From assembly GCA_964611035.1 (NCBI GenBank), contig CAZSWT010000002.1, forward strand, positions 7,437 through 71,436: a DNA stretch of 64,000 bases, given 5' to 3'. Shown piece by piece: positions 42,684 through 55,113 of the stretch (position 1 is its first letter; each line of letters starts with the position of its first letter). The position numbers and the translations under genes were made by a program. The stretch comes from an uncultured Desulfobacteraceae bacterium (GTDB lineage Bacteria; Desulfobacterota; DSM-4660; Desulfatiglandales; B25-G16). The notes beneath the pieces were generated by a model that did not search any database, was not told the DNA's origin, and saw only the letters and a program-made list of their open reading frames with translations.

Positions 42684-42938
42684 TTACCCTGTTAAATAAG
42701 ATTTGAGCCTCCTTCTTAAAAACATCTTCCCATGAAATGTTTTCAAATATTTTTCCCTCCTTGTTGCATCTTCTTTATCAAGACACGCCTCATAGTAAAT
42801 CAGCTTGAATGGCCCTTTATCCTTTGTAGATTCAACAAGTTGCTTATTTTGTTGCTCAAATCTTAGCTTGAGGTTCTTGATAAACCCTGTATAAAAATCT
42901 TCATCCTTCATGCTATGCAATACATATGTGTAAAACAC
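42684..42938 (-). CDS. GIY-YIG nuclease-domain protein (84 aa)
   Basis: FYTYVLHS...DFYTGFIKNLKLRFEQQNK...REKYLK follows the GIY-(x10)-YIG pattern with conserved Arg/Glu. GTG start sits behind GAGGTTAGG. Confidence 0.75.
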   Translation of the reverse strand: MFYTYVLHSMKDEDFYTGFIKNLKLRFEQQNKQLVESTKDKGPFKLIYYEACLDKEDATRREKYLKTFHGKMFLRRRLKSYLTG

Positions 42939-42965
42939 ATCCTAACCTCAAGCTATTTAACAGGG
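42687..42965 (-). mobile_element. 279-bp GIY-YIG mini-cassette with perfect 12-bp terminal inverted repeats
   Basis: CCCTGTTAAATA at 42687-42698 and its exact reverse complement TATTTAACAGGG at 42954-42965 bracket the 84-codon GIY-YIG ORF. Confidence 0.6.
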
Positions 42966-43247
42966 CAAGTATTTGCCCCTATACTGTCTGCTGAATTTAC
43001 CAGTTGTTTGCCAATTGTACCCTGAGGAAAACGGTCCCATTTTAAAACTACTCCCCATACAAAATCTGCTATTTCCTCTGCTAATTGATAAACACGAAGA
43101 TTTTCAAACCCTGTCCTCGCCATACCATTGTATCCTATCATATCTCGTTTCTAATTCAGCAACGGACAATTGACAATGATCGACTGACATTGTCTAAAAT
43201 AGACAAATTATAAAAATATCATTTAAAATTTTTTAGTATAGCACATT

Positions 43248-47675: not shown

Positions 47676-49595
47676 ATGGCAGAAAAGATAGAGGTAACAA
47701 AAGACCTCACTATCCCACAAGTATTTTTAAAAAGATGCAAAGAATATGGAGCTGGAAAAGTTGCCATGAGAGAGAAGGAGTTTGGGTTATGGCTGCCTTA
47801 CACATGGCAGGACTACTATGATAGGGTAAAATATCTATGCCTGGGAATGGTCAGCCTTGGACTAAAGAGAGGGGACAAGGTGGCCATGATTGGTGATAAC
47901 AGGCCGGAAGGTGTCTGGGCAGAGATGGCTGCTATGTGTGCTGGAGGCATACCGGTCTGGCTCTTTCAGGATTGTATGATGGATGAGGTCAAATATATAA
48001 TAGATCATTCAGATAGCAAATTCTTGGTAGGAGAAACTCAGGAGGAGGTTGATAAGGCATTAGCCATTATGCCTGATTGCCCAAAATTAGAATACGTAAT
48101 ATGGGATGACCCAAAGGGGATGAGGCGCTACCATCAGCCAAATTTAAAAAGCATAATAAAGACCCAGGAGCTTGGCAAGGAGCTTGATGAGAAGGAACCG
48201 GATCTATTTGAAAAAATGATTAATGAAGGCAATGGTCAAGAAATCTGTCTCCTGTTTTATACATCCGGCACAACTGCCCTCCCTAAAGGCGCCCTTCTAA
48301 CCCATTACAATATGCTGAGCATGGGTAAAAATCTCATGGCAGTTGACCCATGTTATGACACCGATGACTTTGTATCCTATCTTCCCTTTGCCTGGATCGG
48401 GGAGCAGATGATGTCCATATCCTGCGGCCTCCTGATGGGCTACACACTTAATTTCCCGGAGGAACCGGAAACATCCCAGCATAATATTCGAGAGATCGGG
48501 CCTCATGTAATGTTTGCTGCGCCACGGCTTTATGAGGGCCTGACCCGTCAGGTCCAGGTAAAATATCTGGATTCCACCTGGATAAAGAGAAAGGCATATG
48601 AAATAGCTACAAAGATAGGGTATCATGTAGCGGATCTAAAGTTTGAAAAGAAGCCTATTCCATGGTACTGGAACGCCCTGAATTACTTCGCTTATGCCAC
48701 CATGCAGAAGAAGCTCAAGGATCACCTTGGAATGTCGCGACTCCGACATTGTTATACGGGCGGCGCTGCAATGGGGCCTGAGCATTTTCGCTTTTTCCAT
48801 GCCCTGGGTGTAAACTTAAAACAAATATATGGCCAAACAGAGGTAGCTGGAATATCCGTTACACACAGGGATGGGGATATAAAATTTGACACGGTTGGAA
48901 CTCCTATTCCTGAAACGGAGGTGAATATCACAGAGGATGGAGAGATCATCTCCAAAAGCCCATCAGTATTTCAGGGTTACTATAAAAATGATGAAGAAAC
49001 AAAAAAGACATTAACGGATGGATGGCTTCACTCCAGTGATACCGGTTTTATCGACGATGATGGTCATTTAGTTGTCTTTGACAGGACAAAAGATGTTTTG
49101 AAACTGAATGATGGCAGGCCCTTTGCCCCCCAATATCTCGAGGCCAGGCTTAAATTCAGTCCCTATGTACAGGATGCCTGGGTTATCGGGGATAAATTAC
49201 CCTTTGTAACTGCTGTTATGTGTATTGATTATTCCGTTGTTGGCAAATGGGCAGATGAGCATAAGATTAACTATACAAGTTATCCGGAACTTTCCCAGGA
49301 CCCAAGGGTCTATGACCTTGTTCAGAAACAGATAGAAGAGGCCAATAAAGCGCTTCCTGAACCGGCCAGGATAAACAAATTTGTTAACCTCTACAAGGCA
49401 TTTGATGCAGATGATGAAGAATTGACCAGGACCAGCAAACTAAGGAGGGGTTTTATGGAACAGCGTTACAAGGATATTGTAGAGACCCTTTATAAGGATG
49501 CAGACACGGTCCACCTGGATATGACAATCACCTATGAGGATGGAAGGGAACAGCCTATAAAGACAGATCTGCGTATTCAAGAGATAAAGGCTTGA
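47676..49595 (+). CDS. AMP-forming acyl-CoA ligase (long-chain fatty-acid-CoA-ligase-like, 639 aa)
   Basis: LFYTSGTTALPKGA, YGQTE and HSSDTGFIDDDGHLVVFDRTKD. The start is 1 nt after the ATPase stop. Confidence 0.8.
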   Translation: MAEKIEVTKDLTIPQVFLKRCKEYGAGKVAMREKEFGLWLPYTWQDYYDRVKYLCLGMVSLGLKRGDKVAMIGDNRPEGVWAEMAAMCAGGIPVWLFQDCMMDEVKYIIDHSDSKFLVGETQEEVDKALAIMPDCPKLEYVIWDDPKGMRRYHQPNLKSIIKTQELGKELDEKEPDLFEKMINEGNGQEICLLFYTSGTTALPKGALLTHYNMLSMGKNLMAVDPCYDTDDFVSYLPFAWIGEQMMSISCGLLMGYTLNFPEEPETSQHNIREIGPHVMFAAPRLYEGLTRQVQVKYLDSTWIKRKAYEIATKIGYHVADLKFEKKPIPWYWNALNYFAYATMQKKLKDHLGMSRLRHCYTGGAAMGPEHFRFFHALGVNLKQIYGQTEVAGISVTHRDGDIKFDTVGTPIPETEVNITEDGEIISKSPSVFQGYYKNDEETKKTLTDGWLHSSDTGFIDDDGHLVVFDRTKDVLKLNDGRPFAPQYLEARLKFSPYVQDAWVIGDKLPFVTAVMCIDYSVVGKWADEHKINYTSYPELSQDPRVYDLVQKQIEEANKALPEPARINKFVNLYKAFDADDEELTRTSKLRRGFMEQRYKDIVETLYKDADTVHLDMTITYEDGREQPIKTDLRIQEIKA

Positions 49596-49648
49596 AGAGG
49601 AAGCAGTGGGCAATAAAGGGAAGGTATAAGGACTTTGACTTATAAATA

Positions 49649-50091
49649 CTAAACTCTAAATCCGAAATAATAAACAAATCCAAAGGACCAAAATTAAAAA
49701 TTCAAAACAGTATGATTTAGAAGACAGGACTTTAAAGTTTACAAAGGAGGTAATAGAGTTTGTTAAAAATCTACCAAGGACTATAGCTAATATTGAGATA
49801 ATAAAACAACTTGTCCGAGCTTCTGGTTCTGTGGGAGCAAATTATATCGAAGCGAATGAGGCCTTAAGTAAAAAAGATTTTGCCATGCGCATCAAGATTT
49901 GCCGAAAAGAAGCTAAAGAAAGCAGATATTGGCTGAGACTTATTGAAGTAAATGGGCCGGATGCTGAAAAACAAAGGAAATTATTGATTCAGGAGGCAAC
50001 TGAACTTATGAAAATCTTTGGCTCCATTCTGGAGAAGACAAAATAAGTTTTGATATTATGATTTTGTATTTTGAAATTGTTTAGAGTTTAG
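49649..50091 (+). mobile_element. IR-bounded four-helix-bundle gene cassette in the ligase-livH spacer
   Basis: CTAAACTCTAAA 49649-49660 pairs with TTTAGAGTTTAG 50080-50091 (perfect 12 nt). An inner pair TCAAAAC 49702-49708 / GTTTTGA 50047-50053 lies at the gene edges. Confidence 0.55.
49693..50046 (+). CDS. four-helix-bundle protein (23S rRNA IVS protein / Avd family); no canonical start codon for the full-length frame
   Basis: The frame is open from 49660: ...YDLEDRTLKFTKEVIEFVKNLPRTIANIEIIKQLVRASGSVGANYIEANEALSKKDFAMRIKICRKEAKESRYWLRLI... The only ATG/GTG/TTG is GTG 49831, in the middle of the fold. ATT 49693 lies 5 nt after AAGGA. Confidence 0.55.
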   Translation: MKNSKQYDLEDRTLKFTKEVIEFVKNLPRTIANIEIIKQLVRASGSVGANYIEANEALSKKDFAMRIKICRKEAKESRYWLRLIEVNGPDAEKQRKLLIQEATELMKIFGSILEKTK

Positions 50092-50164
50092 AAATTAGGA
50101 TTTAGGATTTTTCATACTTTACTGCGCGCATTACTTCTTACTAAACAAAAGGGGGTAGAAGAGA

Positions 50165-51049
50165 ATGGAATTATTTTTAATGACCTTTACTACCGGGATT
50201 ATGGTTGGAGGGATATATGCCTTAGTTGCACTTGGTTGGGTTCTGATATACAAATGTTCCGGTGTACTGAACCTGGCCATGGGTGAGCTGACCCTTATAG
50301 GGGCCTATGTCACAATTTATTTTTATTTAATGGGCGTTCCCTTCATTTTATGCATCTTGTTTACCCTGATCATTGGTATTATCCTCGGTATTTTAGTGGA
50401 ACGGATTTTCTTAGACAGGCTTATCGGAGAGCCGATCCTGGCCGTTATAATGGTAACCGTGGGTCTCTCTTTTTTCCTTAAAGGATTGGTTGGGTTTGTA
50501 TGGGGAGTAGATACCAGGGTCTTCACGCCAGCTATCTTTTCCCTTAAGCCATTTACCATCGGTTTTTTGAAGATCTCAACTGTCTATTTCTGGTCCTTTG
50601 TGCTGGCCATTGTTCTCTTTCTCGTTTTTGTTGCCTTTTTTAAATATACACGCTGGGGTCTTTCCATGCAGGCAACAGCAGACGATGAGACAGCCGCCCT
50701 ATCCCTTGGAGTAAGTGCCAGGTTTGTATATGCAGCATCCTGGGCTATTGCCTTTATGGCAGCGGGCGTTGGAGGAGCACTTTTAGGAAATATAAATGGT
50801 GTTAACATTACTATTGGCTTTTTAGGGTTATTGGTATTGCCCGCCGTGGTCCTCGGCGGCCTTAACTCCATTCCCGGGGCCATAGTAGGAGGACTATTAA
50901 TAGGAGTTTTGCAGAATTTTGCCGGCACTTACTTAGATCAGTATTTCCCCGGAGGGGTAAAAGAAGTCTTTCCCTTTGCATTTATGGCAGTATTTTTACT
51001 CTTCATGCCATATGGGCTCTGGGGTTGGATAAAGATAGAGAGGATGTAA
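50165..51049 (+). CDS. livH: Liv-type ABC transporter permease
   Basis: Polytopic membrane protein of the LivH/BPD family pattern (GELTLIGAY...; ...GGLNSIPGAIVGGLLIG). Confidence 0.85.
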   Translation: MELFLMTFTTGIMVGGIYALVALGWVLIYKCSGVLNLAMGELTLIGAYVTIYFYLMGVPFILCILFTLIIGIILGILVERIFLDRLIGEPILAVIMVTVGLSFFLKGLVGFVWGVDTRVFTPAIFSLKPFTIGFLKISTVYFWSFVLAIVLFLVFVAFFKYTRWGLSMQATADDETAALSLGVSARFVYAASWAIAFMAAGVGGALLGNINGVNITIGFLGLLVLPAVVLGGLNSIPGAIVGGLLIGVLQNFAGTYLDQYFPGGVKEVFPFAFMAVFLLFMPYGLWGWIKIERM

Positions 51050-51078
51050 ATTAGCAATGTAAAATTAGCAATTTAAAA

Positions 51079-51282
51079 ATGATATGGAGTTAGACGGAGG
51101 AGAGAAGAAGACCGGAGATGATATATAAAGAATGTAATCTAACAATGTAAAATTATCAATATAAAATTAGCAAGTTAAAAATGATATGGAGTTAGACGGA
51201 GGAGAGAAGAAGACCGGAGATGATATATAAAGAATGTAATCTAACAATGTAAAATTATCAATATAAAATTAGCAAGTTAAAA
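51079..51282 (+). repeat. two identical 102-bp tandem units (cassette arm plus a truncated 14-codon 5' end of the four-helix gene)
   Basis: 51079-51180 equals 51181-51282 base for base. A diverged third copy from 51283 runs into the intact gene. Confidence 0.9.
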
Positions 51283-51287
51283 ATGAT

Positions 51288-51665
51288 ATGGAGTTAGATG
51301 CAGGGGAGAAGAAGACTGGAGATAATATAGCAGAACGTTTACTTGATTTTGCCGTAAGAGTTATAAAACTTGTCAATGCGCTACCGAAAACAATTGTTGG
51401 GAGACATATAGCAGGCCAGCTTGTTAGGTCGGGAACATCTTGTGGATCTAATTATGAAGAATCTCGTGGGGCTGAATCCAGGGCAGATTTTATTCACAAA
51501 TTAGGTATTGCTTTAAAAGAGATTAAAGAATCACGTTTTTGGTTGAAAGTCATTTACCATGCTAAAATTATGAAGCCAGAACAAATTGAATCACTCATTG
51601 TAGAATGCGGGGAATTAGCTGCCATAATTGCAAAAAGCATAATTACAGCGAAAGCAAATAAATAA
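51288..51665 (+). CDS. four-helix-bundle protein (23S rRNA IVS protein / Avd family)
   Basis: MELDAGEKKTGDNIAERLLDFAVRVIKLVNALPKT...GQLVRSGTSCGSNYEESRGAESRADFIHKLGIALKEIKESRFWLKVI. Confidence 0.8.
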   Translation: MELDAGEKKTGDNIAERLLDFAVRVIKLVNALPKTIVGRHIAGQLVRSGTSCGSNYEESRGAESRADFIHKLGIALKEIKESRFWLKVIYHAKIMKPEQIESLIVECGELAAIIAKSIITAKANK

Positions 51666-51735
51666 TTTTCCAAATATTAATTTTTAATTGCTAATTGCTA
51701 ATTTTATATTTTAACTTGAATTAAGGAGATAATCT

Positions 51736-52833
51736 ATGTCAAGAGTTTGGCTTCCGTGCGGCTATTATCATGAAAACTATGCAAAGGATCAGGGTTGGTG
51801 GCAGACACCTGTGATAAAGGGGAAGATGATTTTACTTCTCCTGATTGTTTTTGTTGGATTTCCCTTATTTTTAGACGAATACTGGATCGGTGTGGCTAAC
51901 ATGATTGGCTACACTGCACTTGGTGCCCTTGGCGTACAGCTTTTGATAGGTTATGCAGGTTTGATAACCCTGGGACATGCCGCCTTTATAGCTGTAGGTG
52001 CCTATACAAGTACCATTTTAATCCTGCAATTTCCATGGCCAGAATTTTTAATTAACTGGGGCCTTGCATATCCCATCAGCATTGTAGTTGCTGCAATTGT
52101 TGCCGGCCTGTGGAGTGTTCTCTTTGGGCTTCCTTCTGCCAGGGTCAAGGGATTTTACCTTATTTTAACTACCATGGCCGCCCAGTTTATCACAGTGGAC
52201 TTTATCCTGACCCAGTATGTAAGCCGAATTGGCGGCAGAGGACAGGCATTTTCCCTTCCACCAGGCACAATTAAGATAGGTCCCTGGGTTATAGATACGG
52301 ATTTGAAGGTATATTTTTTAATGATTATCGTTTTGACCCTTACGGTTATGATTATGGCAAATCTCCTCAGAACCAGGGTTGGAAGGGCCTGGGTTGCAAT
52401 AAGGGACAATGATATTGCAGCAGAGACCCTTGGCATTAATATTATCTGGTATAAATTGCTGAATTTCTTTGTGGCAGGATGTATAGCCGGTGTTGCAGGG
52501 GCGTTTTGGGTGGCCAACTTAGCGGCCCTGAGCCCGGAGCATTTTCCATGGTTCTGGTCTCTTTGGCTGGTAGGTGTAATACTAATCGGCGGGGCAGGGA
52601 TTGATGGCGCCATTTTTGGCTCTATATTTATGGTTATGGTCTTAGAAATTTTGCAGATGTTAGCTATGCCAGCTTCTGAAATATTTCCAAAGATCCTGAT
52701 TGATTTTGCCTTTTTAAAGGATATGGCCTTTGGCCTTGCAATATGTGCCTTCTTGATCTATGAGCCTCGAGGACTTTCTTATAGATGGTGGCAGGCCAAA
52801 AATTATTTTAACCTGTGGCCGTTTTCGTATTAA
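51736..52833 (+). CDS. livM: Liv-type ABC transporter permease
   Basis: Polytopic membrane protein with LLIGYAGLITLGHAAF and RVGRAWVAIRDNDIAAETLGIN, typical of LivM. SD AAGGAG. Confidence 0.85.
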   Translation: MSRVWLPCGYYHENYAKDQGWWQTPVIKGKMILLLLIVFVGFPLFLDEYWIGVANMIGYTALGALGVQLLIGYAGLITLGHAAFIAVGAYTSTILILQFPWPEFLINWGLAYPISIVVAAIVAGLWSVLFGLPSARVKGFYLILTTMAAQFITVDFILTQYVSRIGGRGQAFSLPPGTIKIGPWVIDTDLKVYFLMIIVLTLTVMIMANLLRTRVGRAWVAIRDNDIAAETLGINIIWYKLLNFFVAGCIAGVAGAFWVANLAALSPEHFPWFWSLWLVGVILIGGAGIDGAIFGSIFMVMVLEILQMLAMPASEIFPKILIDFAFLKDMAFGLAICAFLIYEPRGLSYRWWQAKNYFNLWPFSY

Positions 52834-52864
52834 TGAAGCTATTGCAAAATATGCTTGAGAAAAT

Positions 52865-52990
52865 GTCATTGGGAGAAGAGATATTCTTATTTAGTCATTG
52901 CGAGGAGCGGGCTTTGGCACTTGGTCATTGCGAGGAGTGGATATTCTCATTTGGTCATTGCGAGGAGGCCAGAGGCCGACGAAGCAATCT
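52865..52990 (+). repeat. tandem array (period 29-30 bp, four units) of the GTCATTG(C/G)GAGGAG left palindrome arm
   Basis: Units start at 52865 (degenerate), 52894, 52924 and 52954. Only the last continues into ...CCGACGAAGCAATCT. Confidence 0.75.
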
Positions 52991-53345
52991 TGGAAGTTCC
53001 GCAATCTTAAAAAAGTATAAATGAAGAGACAGTATTATGTCTATATATTGACCAACAAACATAATACCGTTCTCTACACAGGTATAACAAACGATCTGAA
53101 AAGAAGAGTTTACGAACATAAAGAAAAACTTGTTGATGGGTTTACAAAGAAATACAACATTACAAAATTGGTATACTATGAAGTTTTCGAAGACCCTGAA
53201 AATGCCATATTGAGAGAGAAACAGATAAAGGCTGGTTCAAGGCAAAAGAAAATCGACCTGATTAACAGCATAAATAGAGAATGGATTAATTTGTATGAGA
53301 AAATATGAGATTGCTTCGTCCCGATGAATCGGGACTCGCAATGAC
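52954..53345 (+). mobile_element. GIY-YIG gene carried in the loop of a GTCATTGCGAG...CGAAGCAATCT palindrome
   Basis: The left arm is GTCATTGCGAGGAGGCCAGAGGCCGACGAAGCAATCT (52954-52990). The right arm is AGATTGCTTCGTCCCGATGAATCGGGACTCGCAATGAC (53308-53345) and overlaps the stop codon. Confidence 0.55.
53021..53308 (+). CDS. GIY-YIG nuclease-domain protein (95 aa)
   Basis: YYVYILTNKHNTVLYTGITNDLKRRVYEHK...YYEVFEDPENAILREKQIK. Confidence 0.85.
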   Translation: MKRQYYVYILTNKHNTVLYTGITNDLKRRVYEHKEKLVDGFTKKYNITKLVYYEVFEDPENAILREKQIKAGSRQKKIDLINSINREWINLYEKI

Positions 53346-53356
53346 GAAGTGTCAAT

Positions 53357-53398
53357 GTCATTGCGAGCGAATTTACGAAACGTTTTAATAGCAATGAC
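53357..53398. repeat. short gene-less GTCATTGCGAG...GCAATGAC hairpin
   Basis: GTCATTGCGAGCGAATTTACGAAACGTTTTAATAGCAATGAC. Confidence 0.55.
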
Positions 53399-53430
53399 TT
53401 TTTATTTTTTATCAGGTATACTTGATAAAT

Positions 53431-53568
53431 TCGTAAAAAGTCAAAAATGGGATGGCAAAGTAAAAAGTTCCAAATGCAAGGCTTGCGAATCTTGAGGAAT
53501 GAGGCGTACTTACCAGTACGCGCAATGACAAAAGATGAAGCGTAACGTAGCAGTTGGACTTTTTACGA
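53431..53568. repeat. MITE-like palindromic element (CGTAAAAAGTC family)
   Basis: Arms are TCGTAAAAAGTC (53431) and GACTTTTTACGA (53558-53568). Confidence 0.6.
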
Positions 53569-53590
53569 AGTCGTCATACGTGATTCATTC

Positions 53591-53730
53591 CTAAAAAGTC
53601 ATGAACCGGGGTCATTGCGAGGAGCATAGCGACGAAGCAATCTAATAAATACAATAAGTTATGCTATATGAGATTGCTTCGTCCCGATGAATCGGGACTC
53701 GCAATGACATGCTTTTTGACTTTTTACGAG
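53591..53730. repeat. CTAAAAAGTCA...TGACTTTTTACGAG element enclosing a gene-less GTCATTGCGAG palindrome (53611-53708)
   Basis: Inner element: GTCATTGCGAGGAGCATAGCGACGAAGCAATCT, a 27-nt loop, then AGATTGCTTCGTCCCGATGAATCGGGACTCGCAATGAC. The right arm is identical to that of the GIY-YIG cassette. Confidence 0.7.
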
Positions 53731-53832
53731 ATATTTATATAACAGTTGAAAGGAGGTGAATTACAGGGATAATATAACAATTATTGTTTAGGCGGGTTTA
53801 ATTTTTATTTATCTTTTAAAAAGGGGGAAGCA

Positions 53833-55113
53833 ATGAAGATGAAAAAGATTTTAATTGTTTTATGTGCCGTTGTATTTTTGTTTGGCCTATCATCTATGGC
53901 TTTAGCCAAGGTGATAAAGGTAGGTGGCATTAAGGATACAACAGGTGCTACGTCTGATGTGGGAAAAGACGCCGCACTCGGTCAGGAAGAATTCTGGGCG
54001 CACTATGTAAACGATCATGGTGGCATTAATGGAAAGAAAGTAAAATATATCTGGTTTGACTATGGTTACCGAATCCCTGAGGCCCTTACCAAATATAAGC
54101 TCCTTAAAAGGATGAAAGTTCTCGCTATCATGGGATGGGGAACAGGTGATACCGAGGCCCTTTCACCGACTATCAATAGGGATAAGATTCCCTATGTATC
54201 GGATTCCTACTCTGCTCACCTCACACGGCCAAAAGACTGGGTAGGAAAGGATGGAAAAAAACATGGGGGCACAGCCTATAACCTGTTTTTTTCATCCGAT
54301 TACTCCACCAATGCCAGATCCTGTTTGACAGCCTGGTATGACAAGAAATGGAAACCAAGGGGAGAGAGCAGGAAGCCCCGTCTTGCATGTTGCTATATGT
54401 TTGGCTCTCCGTATGCAAGCGCCCCTATTGCTGCTATCAAGAACCATGCTGAGCTGCTCGGTTTTGATATAGGCAAGGATCAGGATGTGAGTCTATTTGC
54501 CATTGATACCAAGAGCCAGATCATGGCGCTTCAAAAGTTTAAGCCGGATATCATCTGGCACGGAAACACAACTATGTCGGTGTCTGCCACCATAAGGGAT
54601 GCATATGCCCTGGGGTTACGGGCGGATCATATCGTTAACAACTGGGGTTTTGATGAAAACCTACCGCGCCTTGCCGGAGAGGCTATGAATGCAAAGGATG
54701 CACTGTGTGTAATGGGTGCAACTCCTAATGGTTTTTATGGACAAAAATGCGACTTGATGGATGAGGTGGTAAAGTATGCCAAGAAAATCAATCCTGGTGT
54801 CCCTCAGAAAAAGCGTATATGCAGAACTGTTCAGGGTTGGTCCAATGGCCTTGTCCTCTGGGAAGCGATGAAACGGGCAGATAAGGCAGGCGATCTAACC
54901 GGCCCAGGAATTATGAAAAAGGGCTTTGAAACCATGCGGGATTTCCATATCGGTTTATGTACTGGTAATGTTACCTATACAGCCAATGACCATAGGCCAA
55001 CAGGAGGTTGCTGGGTTCAGGAATGGAAAGACGGCAAGTTTCAGAAGGTGGACTTTGTTAATGTGAAAGAGCGGTGGCCAAAACAATGGGCCTCTGAATG
55101 GCACGGATGGTAA
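53833..55113 (+). CDS. ABC transporter periplasmic substrate-binding protein (LivK/Peripla_BP_6-like)
   Basis: Signal peptide MKMKKILIVLCAVVFLFGLSSMALA. About 400-aa periplasmic protein encoded between the permease and ATPase genes. Confidence 0.8.
   Translation: MKMKKILIVLCAVVFLFGLSSMALAKVIKVGGIKDTTGATSDVGKDAALGQEEFWAHYVNDHGGINGKKVKYIWFDYGYRIPEALTKYKLLKRMKVLAIMGWGTGDTEALSPTINRDKIPYVSDSYSAHLTRPKDWVGKDGKKHGGTAYNLFFSSDYSTNARSCLTAWYDKKWKPRGESRKPRLACCYMFGSPYASAPIAAIKNHAELLGFDIGKDQDVSLFAIDTKSQIMALQKFKPDIIWHGNTTMSVSATIRDAYALGLRADHIVNNWGFDENLPRLAGEAMNAKDALCVMGATPNGFYGQKCDLMDEVVKYAKKINPGVPQKKRICRTVQGWSNGLVLWEAMKRADKAGDLTGPGIMKKGFETMRDFHIGLCTGNVTYTANDHRPTGGCWVQEWKDGKFQKVDFVNVKERWPKQWASEWHGW

Follow-up and report, generated by a model that had tools for sequence, protein, structure and literature searches.

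A 102-bp tandem duplication beside a four-helix-bundle gene in a livH-livM operon: probable origin by local duplication of an arm-bearing spacer

Upstream of an intact gene for a four-helix-bundle (4HB) protein, the stretch of uncultured Desulfobacteraceae DNA analysed here (64,000 nt, hereafter the window) carries a perfectly repeated 102-bp unit that contains the first 14 codons of the same gene. This arrangement raises the question of whether a mobile cassette entered its own 5' region repeatedly, truncating an older copy each time, or whether the spacer was copied in place. Comparison with related loci and with other cassettes of the same protein family points to the second answer: the array is very probably a local tandem duplication in the spacer between livH and the 4HB gene, formed in two steps.

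The array is placed between a livH-like permease gene and the 4HB gene, and a livM-like permease gene then follows downstream, its ribosome-binding site (RBS, AAGGAG) lying directly 3' of the right arm (Table 1). The two units agree at every one of their 102 bases, as a first reading of the DNA without database searches (the sequence-only reading) had stated, and such a match is not attainable by chance. Identity at period 102 extends from 51073 to 51298, a periodic stretch of 226 nt, and TRF finds 2.8 copies of this period with 95% matches over 51044-51329. The same reading described a 14-codon ORF in each unit, a left arm that pairs with the right arm, and a diverged third copy running into the full gene. 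All of these are found: the third copy differs from the units by 5 mismatches in 47 nt; positions 51158-51173 and 51260-51275 each pair with 51695-51710, perfectly over 16 nt; 51171-51180 and 51273-51282 each pair with 51709-51718 over 10 nt; and inverted repeats I1-I10 link the right arm with the left arm copies. Two details have to be amended. What was taken for a partial arm after the livH stop is no fragment; it is a shorter allele of the arm, with two instead of three copies of the 14-mer, the first of which overlaps the ATG-TAA stop of livH. The unit itself was described as arm plus 14 codons, and both parts are indeed present, but livH-derived sequence is also included. Across strains, the 14-bp repeat occurs in 1 to 4 copies (L015, L020, L013, L010; also L032 vs L033), and the number of 14-mers in the arm sets the unit length at 102 or 88-89 bp.

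Table 1. Positions of the array, its parts, and the flanking genes in the window.
Feature	Position	Strand	Remarks
livH-like branched-chain amino-acid permease gene	50165-51049	+	PF02653 E=6e-30
Left arm copy 0	51044-51078	+	14-bp repeats ATGTAAAATTAGCA, 2.6 copies; TRF period 14
Repeat unit 1	51079-51180	+	4HB start region, codons 1-14, livH-derived tail, left arm copy 1
Unit 1 ORF	51084-51128	+	14 codons, MELDGGEKKTGDDI, then stop
Unit 1 junction	51125/51126
Unit 1 livH-derived tail	51126-51137	+	TAAAGAATGTAA
Left arm copy 1	51132-51180	+
Repeat unit 2	51181-51282	+	same as unit 1 at 102/102 bases
Unit 2 ORF	51186-51230	+	MELDGGEKKTGDDI, then stop
Left arm copy 2	51234-51282	+
Third, diverged partial copy	51283-51329	+	true 5' end of the intact 4HB gene
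Intact 4HB gene	51288-51665	+	125 aa, PF05635/TIGR02436
Single right arm	51666-51720	+	7-bp repeats TTAATTG/CTAATTG; TRF period 7 at 51677-51703
livM-like permease gene	51736-52833	+	PF02653 E=1.7e-37

The composition of the unit reveals its source. It consists of the last 12-14 nt of livH with the stop, the whole left arm, and codons 1-14 of the 4HB gene. In relatives without any unit, the livH end, the arm, and the 4HB start are contiguous, which is the ancestral order. As the unit thus corresponds to a contiguous stretch of the unit-free locus, host sequence included, it is explained by plain local tandem duplication. The tail of the window unit matches the livH end in sister lineages (GAAAGAATGTAA), while the unit tail of L009 and L012 carries the ATGTGACATAGCA variant, which L007 has at its livH stop. 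The junction of L021-23 and L027 is GATGATAT followed by TGAAAGAATGTAA (longer form, GGAGATGATAT followed by TGAAAGAATGTAA), and what comes after it agrees with the last livH codons of these contigs (unit, ATTGAAAGAATGTAA; own livH, ATTGAAAGAATGTGA); the stub ORF there ends in GDDIERM by way of the livH codons ATT GAA AGA ATG and the stop. Microhomology at the junction amounts to 2-3 nt, (G)AT. The stub peptide was also considered as a conserved leader peptide, and this was rejected, because its stop differs by lineage (directly after GDDI or after GDDIERM) and the stub is missing in many strains that encode an identical protein.

The number of units varies among close relatives. Five JGI metagenome contigs from different samples (L001-L005), retrieved by the livH protein, are 98.3-99.5% identical to the window; exact-sequence look-up of the window 4HB protein matched no contig. 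L001-L004 carry exactly the two units of the window, on contigs with 4-5 kb on either side, and L005, of the window haplotype, carries one unit and ends 126 nt into the 4HB gene. The five two-unit sequences are identical over 50777-51403, and differ elsewhere in clustered patches. Among the 2265 homologue matches of the 4HB protein, all located ones at 79-99% identity (L006-L036, L119-L121) occupy the same livH-livM junction, and are therefore orthologues in related Thermodesulfobacteriota lineages rather than scattered copies; the closest match in the genome scan is a Thermodesulfobacteriota MAG, at 90% identity. The strain comparison proposed by the sequence-only reading does uncover unit-number variants, with no junction in 24 loci, one in 13 (for example, L005 in the window haplotype, and L007, L021, L022, and L027 in sister lineages), and two in 5 (the window and L001-L004). 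No three-unit array occurs among the metagenome-scan matches listed, which are mostly distant relatives, with at least four close ones. In every unit-bearing locus, the breakpoint in the 4HB gene falls after GATGATAT. L010 and L026 have no unit, yet their 4HB protein is identical to that of one-unit relatives.

These states can be ordered into two steps; we infer this order, as well as the mechanism, which may be slippage or RecA-dependent exchange. The older step would date from the ancestor shared by the window, P0003, and P0008 lineages. The segment copied head to tail would have begun about 12-14 nt ahead of the livH stop, taken in the whole left arm, and finished at 4HB codon 14, so that the 4HB sequence at the breakpoint became joined to the livH end at the 2-3-nt microhomology. 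Microhomology of this length is typical of replication slippage or illegitimate recombination. The product would be a 5' gene stub reading into a stop, followed by a second full left arm, and as both livH and the 4HB gene are still intact, the duplication is tolerated. The stubs themselves are most likely non-functional by-products.

The second step, recent and confined to the window lineage, would have added the second unit through unequal crossover or slipped-strand mispairing between existing copies. The one-unit state holds suitable direct repeats, 22 nt of them perfect and about 78 nt at 90% identity, and a recent expansion from one to two units accounts for the identity of units 1 and 2. 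The reverse reaction would drop units, yielding unit-free relatives that encode the same protein, such as L010 and L026. Compared with L007, the window has the DG and DA variants of the N-terminus the other way round in stub and intact copy, which fits exchange between copies. The proposal of recent unequal recombination made from the sequence alone is thus retained for the newest step, from one unit to two, since a one-unit state exists; the older step is instead a microhomology-mediated duplication.

Several observations weigh against this two-step duplication. The microhomologies are short (2-4 nt), and none is visible at the comparable locus L131. The only contig with the one-unit state in the window haplotype, L005, could be a collapsed assembly. 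The common breakpoint could also mark a hot spot that was hit repeatedly, and need not go back to one event. The stub of the P0003 lineage has the same sequence as the intact 5' end, a pattern that would suit gene conversion as well as a young, independent duplication.

Analogous duplications are found in other cassettes of the family. The sample comprises 159 cassettes from GTDB genomes and metagenomes of many phyla, of which 146 (loci L038-L197) are usable for flank analysis. In 12 of the 159 cassettes, a tandem repeat of period 30 bp or longer is located no more than 250 bp from the gene, compared with 3 loci with such repeats in the other 274 kb, a control that is mostly coding and, thus, overstates the contrast with ordinary spacers. 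Three independent duplications cover the whole left arm and run into the gene: 50 bp in L041 (100% identical, reaching 7-11 nt into the gene, with AGAA microhomology), 93 bp in L052 (100% identical, 27-29 nt into the gene, with 23 nt of the upstream gene), and 108 bp in L131 (97% identical, 24 nt into the gene, with 36 nt of the upstream gene). The window breakpoint lies 47 nt into the 4HB gene, so the breakpoint after codon 14, for which the sequence-only reading proposed a check in other cassette copies, is not shared by these three; variable breakpoints had been named beforehand as counting against insertion. Together with the host coding sequence that is included, such variation indicates local duplication in this set. 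Older arrays of 2.4-3.9 units are present in L045, L054, L059, and L102, and the units of L054 and L059 contain decayed gene starts.

The right arm can be duplicated as well (L006-L012, L045, L053, L079, L170). In L006-L012, a tandem copy of about 70 bp (e.g., L007:1176-1315) extends from 2 nt past the 4HB stop to the livM RBS, AAGGA, and 141 nt instead of 71 nt thus separate livM from the 4HB stop. This right-arm duplication and the variation of the 14-mer from 1 to 4 copies show the spacer to be generally slippage-prone. The frequency of flank duplications suggests that the arms raise the duplication rate, which their AT-richness, their 7/14-nt repeats, and their inverted pairing might explain. 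A duplication that begins in one gene and finishes in its neighbour damages neither, and this helps to explain which events survive.

Arms of this kind are a feature of the whole family sample. The 90-nt flanks of the 146 cassettes have a clear 7-nt periodicity: the autocorrelation reaches 0.42-0.43 for lags of 7 and 14 and 0.38-0.40 for a lag of 21, while the remaining lags give about 0.26; the cassette coding sequence gives no such 7-nt signal. Within one cassette, the left flank has a median of nine 7-mers in common with the reverse-complemented right flank; the median is one when the flanks come from different cassettes, and zero when they are compared in direct orientation. The heptads vary by cassette (TTAGCAA, CAATGAT, ATTTATC, GCAGTAA, and others), while the two arms within a cassette match. 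They often include a CAATG/CATTG core, begin just after the upstream stop codon, and finish at the downstream RBS. In Desulfobacterota, many cassettes occupy the AMP-ligase-livH or the livH-livM junction of the same operon. This 7-mer complementarity across the family is used in place of base-pair covariation among orthologues, which was dropped because the TTAGCAA/TTGCTAA heptads are nearly invariant and the variation in 14-mer copies breaks the alignment. No report tying PF05635/TIGR02436 genes to heptad arms or to arm duplication was found in the literature.

At the RNA level, the duplexes predicted between the left arms and the right arm of the window have energies of -23 to -27 kcal/mol (shuffled right arms, -13 +/- 3.5), and the predicted arm-arm helix extends to the 4HB start codon. 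In the unit-free locus L020, this helix closes the whole cassette, in both the minimum free energy (MFE) and the centroid folds. Folds of the whole region have no extra stability over shuffles (z = +0.6 to +0.9), and only the arm-arm helix is used as evidence. An Rfam scan over 49000-54000 yields no rRNA and no known RNA family, with two chance-level hits at a permissive threshold.

Such a helix allows for the possibility that the extra arms are selected. With the spacer transcribed as part of the operon, pairing of the right arm with an upstream decoy arm would free the 4HB start, or alter RNase III-type processing between livH and livM; changes between 0, 1, and 2 copies would then tune expression in the manner of a contingency locus. 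In favour of this, the right arm and any one of the three left arms can form a helix reaching the ATG, the arm-arm stem appears in both folds of L020, complete arms have been covered by duplications repeatedly in independent cassettes, and equivalent stems round PF05635 ORFs in 23S rRNA are cut by RNase III (PMC4990558). In each arm, 9 of 12 positions also agree with a sigma-70-like pattern (CTAACA-17-TAAAAT), which is a weak match. Against this, the whole-region folds are no stabler than shuffles, and survivorship bias can explain the whole-arm coverage, as surviving duplications are those that keep the flanking genes intact. The stub sequence drifts, its stop position varies by lineage, and units are easily lost (L010, L026). 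Selection on the extra arms is considered unlikely. The sigma-70-like matches are located at 51139-51167 and 51241-51269, and are probably due to chance, given the AT-rich region.

That the assembler produced the duplication, or its copy number, is very improbable. Metagenome assemblies are the only sources, and many contigs start or stop in or beside the repeat (L005, L006, L008-L012, L023-L026), which shows the assembly graphs to be tangled here. Nevertheless, the same two-unit array is recovered in five assemblies from different samples, on contigs that extend 4-5 kb beyond it in both directions. Collapsed repeats are also a far commoner assembly fault than expanded ones. With a periodic stretch of 226 nt, k-mers of at least 125 are unique, so the two-unit state can be resolved, and the one-unit and unit-free states carry substitutions of their own, which marks them as real haplotypes. 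The unit count itself rests on presumably short-read assemblies, and two is possibly a lower bound: at least three perfect units would form a cycle in a graph of k=127-141 and could not be resolved, so that two is to be read as 'at least two'.

The least credible account, and one to which we attach almost no weight, is nested insertion, in which a resident copy is truncated each time a mobile 4HB cassette inserts after its codon 14: cassettes do turn over at the neighbouring AMP-ligase-livH junction, where one lies inside the arm remnants of another, a 76%-identical gene with TAAAATTAG-type arms occurs at an unrelated locus of a Candidatus Edwardsbacteria MAG, and all multi-unit haplotypes have a single breakpoint in common, but the livH stop region within the unit belongs to the host and is no part of the cassette, only one right arm is present, with the livM RBS directly after it, tblastn finds no downstream 3' remnant of a 4HB gene at the locus, all close homologues occupy one locus with no donor copies seen, the 4HB subfamily has a sole copy in the 64-kb window, and the analogous events elsewhere have other breakpoints and take in upstream host coding sequence. 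The insertion into its own 5' region that the sequence-only reading had offered as one of two origins is accordingly rejected, on the livH sequence inside the unit, the missing second right arm, and the absence of a displaced 3' fragment.

The intact gene next to the array is maintained. Its protein matches PF05635, '23S rRNA-intervening sequence protein' (E=3e-18, 66.4 bits vs a cut-off of 33.8), and TIGR02436, 'four helix bundle protein' (E=1.4e-25, 89.6 bits vs a cut-off of 24). The closest solved structure is PDB 2RLD (E=4.6e-19, 5 chains), and by similarity to it the window protein is predicted to adopt a four-helix-bundle fold and may form a pentamer. Values of dN/dS between the window and 10 orthologues are 0.08-0.20, which indicates purifying selection. 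At synonymous sites, the 4HB gene has diverged 2-3 times less than both flanking genes when the window is compared with L006, L013, L016, L021, L028, L033, and L036. For example, its divergence is 0.116 vs 0.387 in livM for L021, and 0.46 vs about 1.2 in livH and livM for L033; L036 is more extreme, at 0.40 vs 2.56 in livH. GC3 is 0.25 in the 4HB gene vs 0.45 in the flanking genes. The low synonymous divergence may reflect either constrained synonymous sites or exchange of the cassette between lineages more recently than that of its flanks.

Local duplication aligns the array with bacterial VNTRs or minisatellites. It has in common with these a head-to-tail arrangement, a contiguous ancestral unit spanning two gene ends, microhomology of 2-4 nt, a 0/1/2 polymorphism, homogenised copies, and both gain and loss. 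It differs from them in that the window array lies in a hairpin-forming heptad spacer, and that the event recurs in unrelated cassettes of the family.

The cassette as a whole resembles the intervening sequences (IVS) of 23S rRNA. In Leptospira and Coxiella, an S23p/PF05635 ORF is enclosed in terminal inverted repeats whose stem is cut by RNase III, and in the Coxiella IVS the region just upstream of the start codon is reported to be prone to change, and the ORF is described as decaying (PMC4990558). Common to these and the window element are an ORF of the same family of about 120 aa, an inverted-repeat stem, an element size of about 0.45-0.5 kb, a sporadic distribution, and signs of horizontal spread. 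By this analogy, it is reasonable to suppose that the window element may be processed by RNase III. Unlike an IVS, it is placed between ABC-transporter operon genes rather than in helix 25 or 45 of 23S rRNA, its arms are 7/14-nt tandem repeats, and its 4HB gene is under purifying selection.

A further relationship of the PF05635 family is to Avd, which serves diversity-generating retroelements (DGRs) as an accessory protein (PMC10053308). The two belong to the same four-helix-bundle fold family, in which solved relatives such as PDB 2RLD are pentamers. The repeats of DGRs are different in kind: the window repeat is a direct tandem copy, and the five differences between unit and gene are not adenine-specific. 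Genes annotated by Pfam at about 45.3-56.3 kb of the window include no reverse transcriptase; the neighbouring genes belong to ABC_tran, AMP-binding, BPD_transp_2, GIY-YIG, and Peripla_BP_6.

A further likeness, in architecture, is to REP/BIME-like and MITE-like hairpins, which are also short inverted structures built from repeats that run from a stop codon to the next RBS in operons; gene-less 'solo arms' exist at sister loci (L036, L033, and the livM-SBP junction of L013). In contrast to such hairpins, each cassette has arms of its own, with a conserved protein gene between them. The STRR heptamer repeats of cyanobacteria are likewise short intergenic repeat hairpins.

These likenesses lead to a broader reading, in which PF05635 genes with heptad arms are widespread, undescribed IVS-like selfish elements in the intercistronic hairpins of operons in many phyla, and the arm duplication is a footprint tied to the element, beyond mere slippage. 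This is a speculative reading that we think improbable. If it were true, an Avd-like pentamer might bind its own heptad arms and promote template switching, or alternative RNase III stems might be selected; the low synonymous divergence of the cassette would then be a sign that it homed recently from lineage to lineage, or that its RNA is under constraint.

Under the preferred reading of local tandem duplication, the 102-bp repeat is a routine duplication polymorphism whose main value is negative, in that it provides no evidence of cassette self-insertion. The mechanism is ordinary; the context, an IVS-like cassette that recurrently duplicates its heptad arms, is under-described. Of wider use is that genes of the 23S-IVS/Avd family typically sit in cassette-specific inverted heptad arms, exactly between operon genes, that the arms often duplicate, and that, between close lineages, one junction may hold a different cassette or be left with a gene-less hairpin. 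To our knowledge, this protein family has had no known function outside DGRs since rRNA intervening sequences were described, and the comparative data give a concrete, testable handle on it.

Such replacement can be followed at the AMP-ligase-livH junction. In the window, this junction holds a second PF05635 cassette (49596-50164), between the AMP-ligase gene and livH, with its own arms, CTAAACTCTAAATCC and GGATTTAGGATTT; its first possible start codon (ATG, GTG, or TTG) is not reached until 49831. The cassette is nested in the arm remnants of a different cassette with GCAGTAA heptads, which is intact at the same junction in L013 (1061-1567) and L028 (994-1559). L036 has gene-less 'solo arms' there (1430-1580), and L033 (1496-1580) and L016 (999-1107) have short hairpin spacers. 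These states imply that cassettes have been replaced or turned over at the junction in lineages with 98% LivH identity.

The 76%-identical 4HB gene of the Candidatus Edwardsbacteria MAG (L037/L040) lies between radical-SAM and glycosyltransferase genes. It keeps the TGTAAAATTAG and TAATTTTACA arm motifs in another phylum and at an unrelated locus, which suggests that the arms travel with the gene.

Downstream of livM, an insert of about 830 bp (window 52834-53832) contains a GIY-YIG gene (53021-53308, 95 aa, PF01541 E=5e-18), together with many GTCATTGCGAGGAG-type repeats, small hairpins, and a 30-bp tandem repeat at 52894-52967. L013, L021, and L006 are without this insert, and have a spacer of about 170 nt with a gene-less heptad hairpin, TTGAGTGGTCAAATGGTTAAGTGG and CTTAACGACTCAACTACTTAA. 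Further upstream in the window, on the reverse strand, a degraded third PF05635-like fragment (42911-43084) has 32% identity to residues 14-75 of the 4HB protein, and contains an in-frame stop.
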